Below, one piece after another: positions 16,704-62,577 of a stretch of DNA of 64,000 bases. A program made the position numbers and the translations under genes. The first letter of the stretch is position 1. Each line of letters begins with the position of its first letter. The notes below the pieces were generated by a model, which ran no database searches, was not told the origin of the DNA, and saw only the letters and a program-made list of their open reading frames with translations. Source of the DNA: an uncultured Candidatus Saccharibacteria bacterium (GTDB lineage: Bacteria; Patescibacteriota; Minisyncoccia; Phycocordibacterales; PALSA-1337); assembly GCA_964459225.1 (NCBI GenBank), contig CAYWKB010000001.1, forward strand, positions 32,356 through 96,355. Reading direction: 5' to 3'.

Positions 16704-16705
16704 TG

Positions 16706-16778
16706 TGCGCGTGCTAGGATTCGAACCTAGGACCCCACCAGTATCAGTGGTGTGCTCTACCAACTGAGCTACACGCGC
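16706..16778 (-). tRNA. tRNA-Ile (anticodon GAT)
   Basis: GCGCGTG acceptor, GCTCAGTTGGTAGAGC D-arm, anticodon loop CTGATAC, GGTTCGAATCC T-arm; no encoded CCA. Confidence 0.85.
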
Positions 16779-18669: not shown

Positions 18670-20289
18670 AATTGAAATAATCCACGAGCAGCTTCCGCTA
18701 CCCGTGCCTTGTTACGACTTACTCCCTGTCATTGAGCTTACCTTAGGCCACGACAAGCGTAGACTTCGGGTATTCCCAACTCCCTTGAGTTGACGGGCGG
18801 TGAGTACAAGACTTGAGAACGTATTCACCGCAGTATAGCTGACCTGCGATTACTAGCAATTCCAACTTCATGAGGTCGAGTTGCAGACCTCAATCCGAAC
18901 TGGGGATAGCTTTATAAGGATTTGCTCCATCTTTCGACTTTGCGTCCTGTTGTACTATCCATTGTATCACGTGTGTAGCCCAGGGTATAAGGGACATGCT
19001 GACCTGGCGTCATCCTCACCTTCCTCCCACGACGCAGCAAACAATTTTACAGAGGTTAGGAAAAATTGGTTCACATCACTTGCGTGCGTAGTAACTTTTT
19101 ATATCTCTTACGAGCTATAAAAAGTTCTCCGCACCGGATGTTCACTCAATTTTTCATCATCTCAACAAAATTCCGCACTGTGTCGTGGGCAGTCTCGCCT
19201 GACAAATATAACAGACAACGAGGGTTGCGTTCGTTACCCCACTGAAGGGAACAACTCAAGCCACGAACTGACGACGGCCATGCATCACCTGACTAACTGT
19301 CTTGCGACGCCAAAAGTTTCTTCTTGGCTTCAGCTAGATTAAACCCTGGTAAGGTTCTTCGTTTATCATCGAATTAAACCACATGATCCACTGCTTGTGC
19401 AAGTCCCCGTCTATTCCTTTGAGTTTTAACCTTGCGGTCGTACTACCCAGGCGCTTCTCTTAACGCGTTAGCTACGCCACTCAGAGGGTCGATACTCCGA
19501 ATAGCTAGAGAAGATCGTTTAGGGCGTGGACTACTGGGGTATCTAATCCCATTCGCGACCCACGCTTTCTTGTTTCAGTGTCAGGAGTGCTCTAGTCTGC
19601 TGCCTTCGCTTTTGGTGTTCCCCATAATATCAACGCATTTTACCGCTACACTATGAGTTCCGCAGACCTCTCGCATCCTCTAGTCATACCGTTTCCCTTG
19701 CATGCCCCCGGTTAAGCCGAAGAATTTAACAAGAGACTAATATAACCACCTACACAACCTTTACGCCCAATGATTCCGGATAACGCTTGAGGCACTCGTA
19801 TTACCGCTGCTGCTGGCACGAGTTTAGCAACCTCTTATTCGCCAAGTACTATCAATAAACTTTCTCCCTGGCAAAAGAACTTTACATGCCTAAGCACTTC
19901 ATCGTTCACGCGGCGTCGCTCCGTCAGACTTTCGTCCATTGCGGAAGATTCTCGACTGCGGCCACCCGTAGGTGTATGGACCGTGTCTCAGTTCCATCGG
20001 TGGGGGTCACCCTCTCAGGTCCCCTAGGCGTCATAGCCTTGGTGAGCTTTTACCTCACCAACTAGCTGATACCGAGCAGGCTCATCTTGAAGCGATAAAT
20101 CTTTAGTCTTTCGACACCATCAAGTATTAACTCATCTTTCGATGAGGTATTCCTGACTTCAAGGTTGATACCTACTTATTACTACCTCGTCTGCCACTGA
20201 CTATATATTGCTATACAGCCCGTTTGACTTGCATGCCTTATCCACGCCGCCAGCGTTCATCCTGAGCTAGGATCAAACTCTTAACTAAA
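18670..20289 (-). rRNA. rrs: 16S rRNA (about 1620 nt) with ~140-nt AT-rich expansion in helix 40 (plus coords ~19030-19175) and non-canonical 3' tail lacking CCUCC
   Basis: rc matches AGAGTTTGATCCTAGCTCAG (20262-20281), GTATTACCGCTGCTGCTGGCAC, GGACTACTGGGGTATCTAATCC, ACGGGCGGTGAGTACAAG, CCTTGTTACGACTT; flanking leader/trailer complementarity (18481-18507 vs 20290-20330). Confidence 0.9.
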
Positions 20290-28291: not shown

Positions 28292-29116
28292 ATGAGAGTC
28301 CTAATGTTCATTGTCATGGTGGTGGCGGTCGCAACAATAAACTGCACTGCGGATCCAATAGTACGAGCACCTCGCGTGAGTGAGAAGCTCAAAGAGAAAA
28401 TAGACTACTACAAAAAGGTAGCCGAGGGTCAAAAATACCCGAATCATTTTGTATCAGTCGAGGGGCAGTGGTCAAATGAGTACTCGTCTGCTCAAGAACT
28501 GCCAGACTACTTCGTAGTCAAAGCATCTAATCGTGATGGGGGGCGAATCCTAAAAATGTCCCCCATCGGGACGGTATTTGGCGGAATGTCAGTACCACCA
28601 GTATTCACGGATGTGCTAACTGGAGAAGTGTTTTTTCCTTCACTCCAGACACAAGATGTCCGCAATGGTCCATATGACTATACAAGTACCGACGGAAGAC
28701 TACTGGAAAACTATTTCCAGTACGGATCATTGGTGATCCATGGTGATGTTTACAATATTGTCATCGCCTATGCAGACACACCCCGCTATCCCACAGTCTC
28801 AATGACATGGGGAGCCGAATCAGATCTAATGCATGCCGGAACAATAATTGATACATTCGATGATGTCTCAGTTGAGGATCCGGCAACAGAAACAGAGGTC
28901 TGGTTGCATAATTCAAAAGGAGAAGTTGGTCTATCGGATGGGTTATATCTGTTGGTCTCATCACCAAAAGAAGTAGCACAACTACGAATTGAAACATCAA
29001 CCGATTTAAAAAGTTGGCGAGAAATGACAGTACAACCATATTATATATTTGGTGATGTTATTGTCTACCAAATCCCTTCGGCTAATCTAGGATTCTTTAG
29101 AGCAAAAGAGCTCTGA
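28292..29116 (+). CDS. secreted hypothetical protein, GC-rich (~47%) relative to genome
   Basis: signal peptide MRVLMFIVMVVAVATINCTADP; composition anomaly. Confidence 0.45.
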   Translation: MRVLMFIVMVVAVATINCTADPIVRAPRVSEKLKEKIDYYKKVAEGQKYPNHFVSVEGQWSNEYSSAQELPDYFVVKASNRDGGRILKMSPIGTVFGGMSVPPVFTDVLTGEVFFPSLQTQDVRNGPYDYTSTDGRLLENYFQYGSLVIHGDVYNIVIAYADTPRYPTVSMTWGAESDLMHAGTIIDTFDDVSVEDPATETEVWLHNSKGEVGLSDGLYLLVSSPKEVAQLRIETSTDLKSWREMTVQPYYIFGDVIVYQIPSANLGFFRAKEL

Positions 29117-30321: not shown

Positions 30322-30720
30322 CAAAAAATTCAATCTGTTGATAAAAATTCAGATAAACAAAAGCTTATCGAATTTTAATAAATAAAGGTTTGTGCTTGTT
30401 ATAGACAAGTAATTGTGGTTCTTAAATTTCCTAATAGGATCGACGGATTAGTACTTCTCAGCTTAACATATTACTATGCGTACACCTAAAGCCTATCAAC
30501 GTAATCATCTCTTACGGGTCTCAAACGATTCCTAATCTTGGGGTTGGCTTCCTTCTTAGATGCTTTCAGAAGTTATCCATTCCGAACATAGCTACACTGC
30601 GATGCTCTTGGCAGAACAGCAGTCACACCAGAGGTTCGTTCAATTTGGTCCTCTCGTACTAAAATCAAATCCCCTCAAGAATCAACGCCTGCAGTAGATA
30701 GGAGACCAACCTGTCTCACG

Positions 30721-31276
30721 CTTGTTATCATAGATTACTCTATGCAATGGACTATAGCTTCACCTTCTTACGAAGGTTGTTAACGTTTAGTCTCTACGGG
30801 TGTTTATGAGTTTTGAAGAGAAGGCGAGACACAAGTTCCTGAGCTTTCGCCCCTCGTCCCCTAGGGGACTCTTAGGCGTGATTCCTTCGGATACGCCTAG
30901 CAATACATGTGCCTCACCAAAATTTGAGAACAAAAATTCTCTACAAAACTCACAAACTTCCCTCGGTATTATCCCTTTTTCATGGACTTCCACCGATTTT
31001 AGTTAACTTGATCTTTCTTATATTACTATAAGTGACCGCCGTGTTTGATTGATCTACTTCCTATACTTTTATTTTGTATAAATGTTACTTTATACTTTTC
31101 TTAAACGAAAAACTCGAAGTGATTCAGACTGTTCAATTGTTATAATTGCTTTACAAAATTATATTTCTCAAAATACTCGCATACTTTTCTGCTGAAAAGT
31201 TGCTCTTCTCGGCGCCAAGCGCCTGCGAAAGGTATTTTTCGAAACAAATTTTGCTCCGCTTAGTCATCACAACTAA
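30721..31276 (-). ncRNA. group I-like intron in 23S at E. coli position ~2593 (between ...AGACCGU and CGUGAGACAG), ~556 nt, no convincing homing-endonuclease ORF
   Basis: exon sequences contiguous in E. coli are split here; 5' exon ends in U, insertion ends in G; internal GCGG can pair with exon CCGU (P1 with U.G); known hotspot for group I introns. Confidence 0.55.
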
Positions 31277-31942
31277 ACGGTCTGAACCCAGCTCGCGTAA
31301 CTTTTTAATTGGCGAACAGCCAAACCCTTGGAAGCTTCTCCACCTCCAGGATAAGTTGAGCCGACATCGAGGTGCCGAACTGCGCCGTCGCTATGAACGC
31401 TTAGGCGCAACCAGCCTGTTATCCCTAGAGTAGCTTTTGGTCCGATAATCTTCCCCCGCGTCTAATGCGTAAGGTCGGTTCACTATGTTCTGCTTTCGCA
31501 TCTGTTCGACAAGTACGTCTTACAGTCAAGCCAGCTTATGCCATTACACTATCGGCACGGTTTCCATTCGCGCCTAGCTGACCTTAATAAACTCCTCCGT
31601 TACTTTTTAGGAGGATAGCGCCCCACTAAAACTGCCCGCCAGATTCTGTCTCTTGCCGTTTTTGCCGTCAAGGTTAGAATATATATTTTTTAAGAATGGT
31701 ATTTCACTGTCGGATCCATCTTCCCCGAAAGAAAAACTTCAAATCCTCCCATCTACGCTACGCATAAAAAACATATAGTCAAAATCAAGTTGCAGTAAAG
31801 CTTCTAGGGTCTTTTCGTCTAACTGCAGGTAATCGGCATCTTCACCGATATTGTATTTTCACCGAGCAAGTCTCCGAGACAGTTCTCCAGACATTACACT
31901 ATTCGTGCGCGTCAGAACTTACCTGACAAGGAATTTCGCTCT

Positions 31943-32194
<252 letters not shown>

Positions 32195-32997
32195 CAGGGC
32201 TTACAACAGTCAGCTTGATATAATCGCACCGCCGTTGTTTGACCTTCTGGCATTGGTCAAGTGTCACCCCCTATACATCCTCTTACGAGTTCGCAGGGAG
32301 CTGTGTTTTTGATAAACAGTTGCCAGAGATACTTTAGCTGCGGCCCTTCTTGCGAAGGGCAAGCCTTATTCCGAAGTTACGGCTGATTTTTTGCCGAGTT
32401 CCTTGGAGACCTCTCACTCGTTCGCCTTGGTCTACTCGACCTGAACACCTGTGTCGGTTTGCGGTACGGTTCCTGCATAGATAAGTTTAGAAGATTTTCT
32501 TGGAAGCGCGCTTTATAACATCTAAAAGGGCGAACCCCTCTATTTTCACTCTACTCGGAATTGTCATCAAAGACATTACCCGGATTTTCCTGGGTAAATT
32601 CCCTATAGCATGAACTCAAATCCAATAATGAGCGTCATATACTGCACTCCGTCCCTTCATCACTCTATACAAAAGTCATGGAATATTAACCATGTGTCCA
32701 TCGGGTGCGGTTTTCACCATCCCCTTAGGCCCGACTAACCCTTGGCTGATTTACATAGCCAAGGAAACCTTGTTCTTTCGGCGTGCCGGATTCTCACCGG
32801 CATTGTGGTTACTTGTGCCAACATTCTTACTTCCAAACGCTCCAGCATGGCTCACGCCTTTGCCTTCAACGCAGATTGGAATACTCTCCTACCACTGTAT
32901 ATTATCGAAATAAAATACAATCCTCAGTTTCGGTATCATGTTTAACCCCGATTATCTGCGGCGCAGAATCTCTCGATGAGTGAGCTGTTACGCTTTC

Positions 32998-33029
<32 letters not shown>

Positions 33030-33602
33030 TCATTGTTTGAGAAATTCAACCACCTTAAGCGTACTTAACATGAATTTAGGGACCTTAAATGGAGATCTAG
33101 GCTGTTTCCTTTTTGACGTATGGAGCTTAGCCCCCACCGTCTAACTGCTGAATAATTTAACCTCTGTATTCGGAGTTTGATAGGTCTCGTGATCTTTCGA
33201 CCTGTCGAGACCTTCCAGTGCTCTACCCCAGAGGGGTACATTCAACGCTAGCCCAAAAGCTATTTCGGAGAGAACCAGCTATTACCAGATTCGATTAGCT
33301 TATCACTCCTTACCTCAAGTCATCGCAGAGAATTGCACAACTCTAGCGTTCGGACCTCCCTTTCCACTTCTGAAAAGTTCATCCTGCTCAAGGCAAGCTC
33401 ATCTGGCTTCGGGTCTGATGCATACTACGAACGCGCTATTCACACTCGGTTTCCCTGTGGCTCCAGTCTCTCGACCTTAGCCTGCAGCATGCTTCAACTC
33501 GTTGGCTCATTCTTCAATAGGCACGCAGTCGAGGTATTGCTACCTCTTCTACTCCTTGTAAATATATGGTTTCAGGTCTATTTCATCGCCCTTACCGGGC
33601 TG

Positions 33603-33642
<40 letters not shown>

Positions 33643-34545
33643 TTCTAGAATATTTAGCCTTACCGGTTAGTTCCGGCAGATTCCCCCGAGCTATTCGTGT
33701 CTCGAGGTACTCAAGAATAGGAACAAAAAAGATCTTTTGATTTCGACTACAGGGCTATCACCTTCTGGGGCTAAGCTTTCCAGCTTATTCTTCTATCAAA
33801 AAATTTTGTAACTTTTCTGTTATAAATAACACGTTCCTACCTTACTACCCCCAACCTTTATCGCACGATAGGACATGAGAGACATTGCTGTCCCCCAAAA
33901 TTCCTATAGCACGATAAAGGTTGAGTTTGGGCTCTTCCGCTTTCGCTCGCCGCTACTTACGAAATTCTTATTTAGTCTCTATTCCTCCAGGTACTGAAAT
34001 GTTTTACTTCCCTGGGTGCGCATTCAAATATCAAGTACTTGAATTCTGACTCGAGGTCAGAGGGTTTCCCCATTCGGAGTCTTCCGGATCAAAGGTTGCT
34101 AGGCACCTCCCCGGAAAATATCGTCGCCATGCCACGTCCTTCATCGCTTCTTAGAAGCCTAGGCATCCACCATATACTCTTAAATTTCCCATTAGGAAAT
34201 CTAAAAACCACAATTATTTGTCTACAACTTACAACATACTATTTAATGTATATATTCGAAAAAACCCTAACATATATACATCTTATAGTATTACCTTTAT
34301 TTATCACTCAGTAACTTCCTGATTGTTGAAATTACTGAGTTATTTAATTGTCAATGTTTCTGTCATTATGTTATTGAATTTTTCATTTCAATTTTACAAA
34401 AAAATCGCTTTATTAAGCGACCTTTCCTAACACCGTTTTAAAGCGTTATTATGGCCGTTTAAATAGTGAAGTTTTTAACATATTTCTGTGTAAGGGATAG
34501 TGTATACGAAGGTGAAATTAAAGTCAATAGCGATACATAAAATAG

Positions 34546-61711: not shown

Positions 61712-61754
61712 ATTTAACTATTATATCACAAATTAACATTACCCATCACAGACC

Positions 61755-61787
61755 AAACAAAAGACTAAAACAATCTAGTCTTTTGTT
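61755..61787. terminator. 13-bp-stem hairpin AAACAAAAGACTA-aaacaatc-TAGTCTTTTGTTT at AT-rich/GC-rich boundary
   Basis: read directly. Confidence 0.5.
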
Positions 61788-61940
61788 TTGTTGCGGGCAT
61801 CGTGGGTTCAGTACCAAAGCAGTGAGACACCGTAAGGGTATTTTAGCAGACTTTTGGAGGTTGAAATGAGGTATGTGGGTCGGGGTCTGCTTTACAGATT
61901 TTGACAAGTTAAAAGCCTAGCTCACGGATCGAACGTGATA

Positions 61941-62342
61941 CTAGGCTTTTTCAAACATCCAGCCGAGTCGTGTACCGAAGTTCTCCCTTACCGAGAGTTC
62001 GTCGAGACGATCCTTGAAGCTGAAAGTCCTTTCGCGCGGAATGTAGTCGCGGTTCATCCCGCTGATGCACATCACTCGAGATTGCAGAGGGCCGAGTCTT
62101 TCGAAGACATCGTGACCATTGAGACATTTGCAGCGACCTGTAGTGAACCGGCAATCGCAGAAGTCGTGGTCAAGCAGGATAAGGACAGGATCAACTTCCA
62201 GAATCTGCCTTACGATTTCATCAGCAGAAGTATCCCATTTCGGAGTGATCGTCAGGACAACTTCGAATCCGTTCTTCTGACAGGCATCCGCGAGTGGTTT
62301 TTGATATCTGATTACATCTTCGATAAGAACTGTTTTTTGCAC
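61941..62342 (-). CDS. hypothetical protein, possibly receiver-domain-like with Cys-rich insert (CDCRFTTGRCKC); GTG start preceded by perfect SD AAGGAGGTG; GC ~52%
   Basis: 133-aa ORF; rc upstream = ctgAAAGGAGGTGtctcGTG; hairpin terminator AAGCCTAG...CTAGGCTT overlaps stop (61911-61951). Confidence 0.5.
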   Translation of the reverse strand: MQKTVLIEDVIRYQKPLADACQKNGFEVVLTITPKWDTSADEIVRQILEVDPVLILLDHDFCDCRFTTGRCKCLNGHDVFERLGPLQSRVMCISGMNRDYIPRERTFSFKDRLDELSVRENFGTRLGWMFEKA

Positions 62343-62423
62343 GAGACACCTCCTTTCAGGGTTTTATTGGGTTTGAGTTCTAGTTGAATAGTAACACGTA
62401 TTTATAGTTTCGTAAAGCTTCGG

Positions 62424-62460
62424 TGCCTAGGTACTTGGGTCGCCCCACATACCTAGGCAC
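62424..62460. promoter_or_regulatory. inverted repeat GTGCCTAGGTA-N15-TACCTAGGCAC between island ORF and tRNA-Ser (operator/att-like)
   Basis: perfect 11-bp arms read directly. Confidence 0.35.
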
Positions 62461-62487
62461 TCGGGTCACTCCGATACTTTATTCTCT

Positions 62488-62577
62488 TGGCGGAAAGAGC
62501 GAGATTCGAACTCGCGGTTCCGATGAAGGAACGGCGGTTTAGTAAACCGCTGGTTTAAACCACTCACCCATCTTTCC
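62488..62577 (-). tRNA. type II tRNA, Ser identity (long variable arm, G73 discriminator, CCA encoded) with anticodon loop UUACUAA -> anticodon ACU (A34)
   Basis: GGAAAGA/TCTTTCC acceptor, 3-bp D stem, GCGGT-TTACTAA-ACCGC anticodon arm, GTTCC/GGAAC variable arm, GCGAG-TTCGAAT-CTCGC T-arm. Confidence 0.7.

Follow-up and report, generated by a model that had tools for sequence, protein, structure and literature searches.

The window analysed here, a 64-kb stretch of contig CAYWKB010000001.1, carries a serine tRNA gene with the anticodon ACU and, directly after the 3′ end of this tRNA, a GC-rich block with one gene for a receiver-like protein. The best explanation of the locus as a whole, which we hold to be probable, is that these are two separate things, namely a conserved extra tRNA-Ser(ACU) and a foreign cassette lying beside it. 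Sequence comparison establishes the conservation of the tRNA, which appears to be a functional, vertically inherited additional serine isoacceptor of a Patescibacteria clade (Paceibacteria- or Minisyncoccia-like), while the block is recently acquired foreign DNA and belongs to a family of cassettes associated with tRNA-Ser genes. For translation biology the tRNA is the more surprising item, and the cassette family is previously undescribed tRNA-associated mobile DNA.

Identity and conservation of tRNA-Ser(ACU)

The tRNA gene (Table 1) was recognised as a type II serine tRNA by both ARAGORN and Rfam (RF00005, 56.4 bits; gathering threshold 29), in agreement with a preliminary description of the locus that had noted the type II form, G73 and the ACU anticodon within the loop UUACUAA. 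The anticodon loop has 7 nt, the variable arm is long, CCA is encoded in the gene, and the T-loop (GTTCGAATC) as well as the U33/A37 context are canonical. The anticodon is cognate to the serine codon AGU and its wobble adenosine (A34) is non-canonical, the usual bacterial set of serine anticodons (NGA or GCU) being not matched by the window and nine related contigs, all of which carry ACU. Altogether six distinct sequences of this tRNA are known, that of the window and five further variants in the nine contigs. The discriminator base G73 and the pairs G1-C72, G2-C71 and A3-U70, which are identity elements for seryl-tRNA synthetase (SerRS), are unvaried in all six and in the GCU tRNAs as well.

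Bacteria have A34 almost exclusively in tRNA-Arg(ACG) (PMC11066159), and a canonical GCU copy is present 2.25 kb away; the ACU anticodon might therefore be taken for a sequencing or assembly error, or the gene for a tRNA-Ser(GCU) copy recently inactivated by mutation, that is, a pseudogene. This explanation is effectively refuted by several lines of evidence, and the earlier idea of an island-borne or damaged tRNA falls with it. Three Logan assemblies from other sequencing runs (L001–L003) are 100% identical to the window over tRNA and island, which rules out an assembly artefact. In a genome of GTDB (L010), whose flavin adenine dinucleotide (FAD) oxidase is 79% identical to that of the window, the same tRNA with anticodon ACT stands in the same place. 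A metagenome scan with a 34-nt pattern, in which position 34 was left free and the other 33 bases were fixed, returned eight contigs (L059–L066), every one with A34; since so many bases were fixed, the scan probed only in part how broad the family is and whether variants with G34 are lacking, which tells against the reading offered here. Together with L010, A34 is found in nine of nine related contigs, which come from different species and samples.

The stems of the tRNA evolve as those of a maintained molecule would: double-sided compensatory changes occur at six acceptor and T-stem pairs, 98.7% of the cells are paired, and the observed covariation was reached by none of 500 shuffles. The variable stem of 5 bp is kept among the ACU variants, and the anticodon loop is unvaried, although most of it was fixed by the scan pattern. 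Gene order is conserved as well, since the FAD oxidase-tRNA order is common to L060, L061 and L064, the order tRNA-DUF5652-ComF-PilM occurs in L059, and the tRNA with A34 is found at the syntenic position also in species without the island. Among 49 GTDB genomes the FAD-oxidase neighbourhood had one syntenic relative only, the gene order being otherwise scrambled.

The preliminary description had advised looking for a second, canonical tRNA-Ser(GCU), and this gene was found beyond the FAD-oxidase gene and past the end of the window (in L001); ACU is thus an extra isoacceptor and not a mutated sole copy. In all contigs long enough tRNA-Ser(GCU) lies near tRNA-Ser(ACU), in four of them at a distance of 90–120 bp and in divergent orientation, and RecG adjoins the GCU gene in L062, L066 and L001. 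Within one genome the two tRNAs, ACU and GCU, diverge along the whole of their D, anticodon and variable arms, too much for a recent duplicate, and therefore ACU is an old separate isoacceptor and not a fresh mutant copy.

Proposed decoding by tRNA-Ser(ACU)

The 13,931 codons counted in host genes include 266 AGT, 59 AGC and 304 AGA, so that the usage of AGU to AGC is 4.5:1. When the FAD oxidase is aligned with 36 homologues, the codons AGA and AGG fall at arginine or lysine columns, invariant arginine columns included, and AGT falls at serine columns. By this alignment the AGN box is seen to have its standard meaning in the host, with AGA and AGG read as arginine, and reassignment of the two codons to serine was rejected for the same reason. 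Because AGA and AGG still specify arginine and AGU so clearly outnumbers AGC, tRNA-Ser(ACU) most likely keeps A34 unmodified and serves beside tRNA-Ser(GCU) as a decoder specific for AGU: unmodified A34 would read the abundant AGU by Watson-Crick pairing, and the GCU tRNA would cover AGC.

An engineered tRNA provides the closest parallel (Schmitt, Tittle and Fisk 2024, PMC11066159), having the same anticodon and the same decoding as proposed here. In E. coli this ACU tRNA was not deaminated, preferred AGU over AGC at a ratio of at least 95:5, and read AGA below detection. It was built, however, on the scaffold of M. jannaschii tRNA-Tyr and is not a natural serine tRNA; its host and the modification enzymes there also differ. 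The open-access literature searched yielded no account of a natural tRNA-Ser(ACU) in bacteria. Natural tRNAs with unmodified A34 are represented by Mycoplasma tRNA-Thr(AGU) and yeast mitochondrial tRNA-Arg(ACG) (PMC11066159), and the tRNA of the window resembles them in its reduced AT-rich genome, in an encoded wobble A and in the expectation that this A is unmodified. Those tRNAs belong to four-codon boxes, in which a misread codon does no harm, whereas ACU falls into the split AGN (Ser/Arg) box; moreover, they reflect reduction of the tRNA set, unlike tRNA-Ser(ACU), which is an addition beside tRNA-Ser(GCU) and whose unmodified A34 is predicted.

If A34 were instead converted to inosine (I34) or otherwise modified, the tRNA would read AGU and AGC, and possibly AGA. 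In bacteria TadA is responsible for the I34 of tRNA-Arg(ACG) and, in certain lineages, also for that of tRNA-Leu (PMC8266599), and the loop described here has U33-A34-C35 and A37 in common with the TadA substrate. Nevertheless, deamination is unlikely to be tolerated, because I34 would also pair with AGA, the commonest arginine codon of the host (304 occurrences against 266 of AGT), which sits at invariant arginine positions. In addition, E. coli TadA leaves the ACU anticodon unmodified (PMC11066159), and a related genome (L073) has tRNA-Arg(GCG) in place of tRNA-Arg(ACG), so that a modified A34 is regarded as improbable. No TadA-like motif was matched in the 64-kb window, which says nothing on the whole genome.

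The tRNA-Arg(GCG) gene just mentioned was observed at L073:5015-5087 (also in L074 and L075) in a related Patescibacteria genome of 56% GC. Such a tRNA is unusual in bacteria, which as a rule have the anticodon ACG (decoding as ICG), and its presence is a hint that some of these lineages are perhaps independent of TadA and I34.

Redundancy with tRNA-Ser(GCU) for AGU might also be explained by a task outside ribosomal decoding, for example that of a serine donor for cell-envelope synthesis or of a regulatory or decoy tRNA, and non-proteinogenic tRNAs are known in Firmicutes. Such a task is very improbable here, as the T-loop, U33/A37, G73 and the variable arm are all canonical and the unvaried anticodon loop, mostly fixed by the scan pattern, fits a needed anticodon.

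The interest of an AGU-specific tRNA with A34 lies in the fact that wobble A is avoided almost universally, being turned into inosine or thought poor at decoding, and that missense errors would follow from inosine in a split codon box. If true, a conserved tRNA-Ser(ACU) of natural origin would offer a rare opportunity to study genuine A34 decoding in vivo and could show how reduced-genome bacteria fit their tRNA sets to AT-rich codon usage. In annotation, pipelines may flag its gene as an oddity.

Foreign cassettes at the 3′ ends of tRNA-Ser genes

The window is AT-rich (GC 0.333 over 64 kb), its 16S and 23S genes are unlinked and lie about 10 kb apart, it encodes a DUF5652 protein and type IV pilus genes, and its nearest GTDB relatives carry the labels Paceibacterota, Minisyncoccia or Patescibacteria; on these grounds its source is a bacterium of the candidate phyla radiation (CPR)/Patescibacteria. 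The 3′ end of the 16S rRNA (18670–18700, minus strand) reads GGAUUAUUUCAAUU, the E. coli counterpart being GGAUCACCUCCUUA, and CCUCC, the anti-Shine-Dalgarno (anti-SD) sequence, is not present in it, as had been pointed out earlier. No Shine-Dalgarno-like (SD-like) motif stands upstream of 48 of the 49 non-overlapping open reading frames (ORFs) of at least 120 amino acids (aa) in the window, and G is depleted at −12 to −7 before gene starts throughout it. Since CCUCC is lacking and nearly all these ORFs are without the motif, translation in the host appears to start without SD pairing.

In this host the block differs in composition, in signals and in distribution. Its GC content is 0.478 at 62001–62500 against about 0.30 in the flanks and reaches 0.42–0.54 in bins of 100 bp; thus the GC-rich island of the preliminary description was borne out, and only the value of 52% proved slightly high for a block with about 48% over some 700 bp. 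The receiver ORF has a GC content at third codon positions (GC3) of 0.54 against 0.22 in host genes, and its GTG start follows AAGGAGGTG, which is indeed the only canonical SD in the window. The comparison with relatives for an empty site gave a clear result: in L064, of the same species as L010, homology runs through the FAD oxidase and the tRNA to ...CCGCC and resumes at 61728, in the −10 region of the DUF5652 gene. Between these breakpoints the window has 760 bp and L064 has 146 unrelated bp, a spacer that was considered as a homologue of the island and rejected for lack of homology. Among the relatives seen, the GC-rich ORF is confined to this genome. Absence from the sister species, the GC3 contrast and an SD in an anti-SD-less host together identify the block as recently acquired foreign DNA. 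The same recent foreign origin, once supposed for both features, does not extend to the tRNA, which is present in species without the island.

It could be objected that the block is a native, vertically inherited host gene whose odd composition results from protein or RNA constraints, as the receiver homologues are slightly GC-richer than their flanks in four of the five other contigs. This is contradicted by the empty site in the sister species; L059 too has no such block at the syntenic slot, and a native origin is scarcely credible with the GC3 difference and with the only SD of a host devoid of anti-SD. Because the 16S 3′ end has no CCUCC, AAGGAGGTG cannot pair with it, and a donor-type SD/GTG start which cannot use SD/anti-SD pairing may leave the receiver gene poorly translated in this host.

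Between tRNA-Ser(ACU) and the DUF5652 gene the content changes from lineage to lineage, in the manner of a variable hotspot. The window has the cassette there, L064 a GC-rich spacer of 146 bp (L064:2335-2480) and L059, where the order tRNA-DUF5652-ComF-PilM is the same, a 95-aa ORF (L059:1111-1398).

The architecture of the block recurs elsewhere. In the alignment of the cassettes the conserved 5′ module of about 150 nt contains the trailer AGARAATAAAGTATCGGAGTGAC, the box TAGGTATGTGGGGYGAC, a TTTACK-17-TAnnnT site and CCTTGAAAGGAGGTGnnTC followed by the GTG start, and the conserved 3′ module of about 130 nt contains a terminator, TTTTAACTTGTC, CCCGACCCACATACCTCATTTCAA, CTGCTAMAATAYCCTTACGG and TGGTACYKAACCC...CCCGCMA. 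The strong hairpins and the inverted repeat described earlier are all present (Table 1), the hairpin just outside the cassette having a host-like composition. A 14-nt box of the island recurs 3′ of tRNA-Ser(GCU) in L059, and the same modules flank unrelated ORFs, namely the receiver gene in the window and the gene of a 125-aa helix-turn-helix-like (HTH-like) protein in L059; further cassettes were reached via homologues of the HTH protein. The spaced motif TTTACK-16/17-TAnnnT is kept in five cassettes, and the terminator of the window, followed by the conserved TTTTAACTTGTC, is homologous to those of the L059, L077 and L076 cassettes. Four cassettes of 670–700 bp, with one ORF and the same modules, occur in different genomes and at different tRNA-Ser isoacceptors. 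The cassette family, its foreignness and its association with tRNA-Ser genes are established. The L076 cassette is flanked by CGCCARGAAAA..TATCGG..TGACCC direct repeats (score 27 against a shuffle maximum of 22), and its junction compared with the tRNA/trailer junction of the window scores 53 against a shuffle maximum of 25. In L073 (56% GC) the HTH gene has tRNA-Ser(UGA) as its neighbour and shares no more than the SD region and the terminator with the cassettes; this locus may be a donor-like native context of the HTH gene.

From these comparisons the recently acquired block would be a non-autonomous single-gene cassette. Such cassettes lodge at the 3′ ends of tRNA-Ser genes, where they would be, or would once have been, integrated by site-specific recombination with a recombinase provided in trans; their cargo would be swapped at the SD/start and terminator boundaries, and in the window a rare receiver gene stands in place of the usual HTH cargo. 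The TTTACG-17-TACTAT site of the 5′ module may act as a promoter, as judged from its sequence, though it scores below the threshold of the consensus scan. A more far-reaching proposal, which is put forward tentatively, combines a natural dedicated A34 tRNA, which would read only AGU in a split box and so depart from the near-universal avoidance of wobble A, with tRNA-Ser-docking, recombinase-less, self-expressing cassettes that end in a mimic of the tRNA-Ser 3′ end and could stack and swap cargo like integrons.

Several points weigh against this picture of the cassettes. Five or six of them are known in all, several on short contigs, and no integrase or transposase was found near any of them; the neighbours in the window are genes for the FAD oxidase, DUF5652, ComF-like and PilM proteins, none an integrase. 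Stem pairing of the two 14-nt inverted-repeat boxes was tried and rejected, as it shows no covariation among the cassettes. The terminus at 61791–61814 scores 13 against the resident tRNA 3′ end, where the shuffle mean is 13. A tRNA-Ser 3′-end pattern, chosen post hoc, does match this terminus and otherwise only the tRNA in the 64 kb; no exact repeat of the tRNA 3′ end was found elsewhere in the window.

The absence of a recombinase would also be accounted for if the block were what decay has left of some larger prophage or integrative element, with the shared modules as its leftover ends, and not a discrete type of cassette, the more so as a tRNA 3′ end is a classic integrase target. At neighbouring tRNA-Ser genes another small GC-rich insert is seen together with a duplicated tRNA 3′ end, which is likewise what repeated integrations would be expected to leave. 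On the other hand, independent decay would not give four cassettes of equal compact size and architecture, and for neither the protein nor the DNA was a relative found in the phage, plasmid and IMG/VR collections, so that a relic is thought rather unlikely. Five IMG/VR matches to a 17-mer were dismissed as chance, since they cover 17–21 nt only.

The cassettes proposed here resemble tRNA-targeted islets and elements of the cis-mobilizable (CIME) type in their location at a tRNA 3′ end, their atypical composition, their absence from close relatives and the lack of an own recombinase, and further in the att-like repeats of L076. They differ from CIME-type elements in being far smaller (0.7 kb, one gene), in expression modules that reach the start codon, in a terminus that mimics the tRNA-Ser 3′ end without an exact repeat of the resident tRNA, and in that no parent element or integrase has been found so far. 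With integron cassettes they share a single ORF, conserved recombination-type ends and interchangeable cargo, and the truncated upstream module and repeated junction of L076 hint at a likeness to integron arrays; unlike integron cassettes, they appear to bring a promoter-like site and a terminator with them and have tRNA-Ser genes as their anchor. No attC-like imperfect palindrome, IntI or attI/Pc platform was noted and no integrase domain was found among the listed neighbour genes, although no search aimed at attC or IntI was made. The cassette family would be one route by which CPR bacteria, in which few mobile elements are recognised, gain single regulatory genes, and it marks the 3′ ends of tRNA-Ser genes as variable hotspots.

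Receiver-like cargo, small inserts and feature list

The 133-aa GTG ORF with its upstream SD was confirmed as described. A word-indexed homology search returned no match for it, and an exhaustive HMMER search yielded five homologues with 44–52% identity among 1.84 billion representatives, to which a profile search added two; the family is thus extremely rare, with about eight members in 5.8 billion protein clusters. The homologues occur in unrelated contexts, on contigs of roughly 38–47% GC, and no kinase gene is adjacent in any homologue locus. Residues E8, D9, D58, S94 and K110 are invariant in six aligned sequences, and D58, the putative phospho-acceptor, corresponds to the acceptor aspartate of YycF in a profile alignment. 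A cysteine-rich insert of 12–15 residues after β3 replaces the normal β3-α3 loop, and the full CxC...CxC set after D58 is found in four of the six sequences. An AlphaFold2 model (predicted local distance difference test, pLDDT, 89.6) has atypical α3 and α4 regions, and the 50 best Foldseek matches in PDB are almost all receiver domains, with template modelling (TM) scores of 0.5–0.64. A profile search of PDB sequences gave weak matches to CheY, YycF and DivK. The protein of the window has no Pfam match at the thresholds used, PF00072 included, and two of the six family members match PF00072 weakly (best E = 0.0009).

According to these data, which upheld the receiver-like fold with a cysteine-rich insert, the ORF is predicted to encode a genuine divergent stand-alone CheY-like receiver protein. 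It is like CheY, DivK and Spo0F (PF00072) in fold, in the acidic pocket and in the positions of the aspartate, serine/threonine and lysine residues, and differs from them in falling below the Pfam threshold, in the insert after β3 and in the great rarity of its family.

The block had been said to contain a single ORF; strictly, an antisense ORF of 150 aa exists as well. Its frame is not kept open in the homologues, where the longest open stretches are 52–149 aa, and it is a spurious by-product of GC-rich coding sequence. Public gene calls skip the region or annotate the antisense ORF, and the 133-aa product is not in the protein collection searched; the analysis thus exposes a wrong-strand gene call that left the real protein out of that collection.

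Table 1. Positions of the features discussed; coordinates without a contig prefix refer to the window.
Feature	Position	Strand	Remarks
tRNA-Ser(ACU), type II	62488-62577	minus	ARAGORN, Rfam RF00005; anticodon ACT at 62541-62543
Whole cassette, single gene	61791-62487	minus	697 bp; directly after tRNA 3′ end
5′ module	62343-62487	minus	aligned with L059, L077, L076
Trailer AGAGAATAAAGTATCGGAGTGACCC	~62463-62487	minus	part of 5′ module
Hairpin, 17-nt arms, GTGCCTAGGTA/TACCTAGGCAC repeat	62423-62460	minus	part of 5′ module
Left inverted-repeat box AGGTATGTGGGGCG	62441-62454	minus	inside the 62423-62460 hairpin
Promoter-like TTTACG, 17-nt spacer, TACTAT	62411-62416 and 62388-62393	minus	
SD AAGGAGGTG	62347-62355	minus	upstream of GTG start
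Receiver-like cargo ORF, 133 aa	61941-62342	minus	GTG start
Antisense ORF, 150 aa	61935-62387	plus	called as gene in L002 (L002:121-573)
Terminator hairpin AAAAGCCTAG...CTAGGCTTTT	61911-61950	minus	10-nt perfect arms; stop codon in 5′ arm
3′ module	61791-61910	minus	~80% identical to L059, L077, L076
Right inverted-repeat box CGACCCACATACCT	61869-61882	minus	in 3′ module
CTGCTAAAATACCCTTACGG	61830-61849	minus	in 3′ module
tRNA-Ser-3′-end-like terminus GTACTGAACCCACGATGCCCGCAA	61791-61814	minus	distal end of 3′ module
AT-rich hairpin, 16-nt arms	61752-61791	minus	just outside cassette, upstream of DUF5652 promoter
L059 cassette			at tRNA-Ser(GCU); cargo 125-aa HTH-like protein
L077 cassette			tRNA-Ser(GCU), then small insert, then cassette
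L078, L079 cassettes			tRNA-Ser(CGA), then reduced cassette
L076 cassette			truncated 3′ module, then cassette, then tRNA-like end and trailer again
Small inserts	L001:6059-6290; L060:2176-2340; L061; L077:134-263		L001 insert ~1.3-1.5 kb past window right end
16S rRNA	18670-20288	minus	spans 1619 nt vs 1533-nt model
23S rRNA	30428-34196		spans 3769 nt vs 2925-nt model, i.e. ~840 nt of insertions
tRNA-Ile(GAU)	16705-16778		

No intron family was found in the rRNA genes of the window at the Rfam gathering threshold. The island, the small inserts linked to tRNA genes and the spacers of the relatives matched no Rfam family.

The small inserts form a further group of observations at tRNA-Ser genes with anticodon GCU or ACU, where a conserved and strongly structured GC-rich insert of 120–160 nt stands right after position 73. 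It has the motif ACGAyCTG-hairpin...GAUGAGAAAGsCGGA...GAC with folding z-scores of −5 to −7, and it is followed by a second tRNA 3′ copy from CGAATC, which in L001 and L077 is an exact repeat of 19 nt. With no match in Rfam, this insert could be a second type of small element, or a non-coding RNA or ribozyme.

Two other loci deserve mention. Outside the window, at L001:6420-6600 (minus strand), a 58-aa ORF with CxxC...CxxC and a weak match of the DnaJ zinc-finger-like kind lies downstream of tRNA-Ser(GCU), beside remnants of a 5′ module (trailer and TTTACGGAAC). Within the window, an ORF of 274 aa at 28292–29116 (plus strand), with a GC content of about 0.45, without a Pfam family and without an SD, may be another foreign gene.

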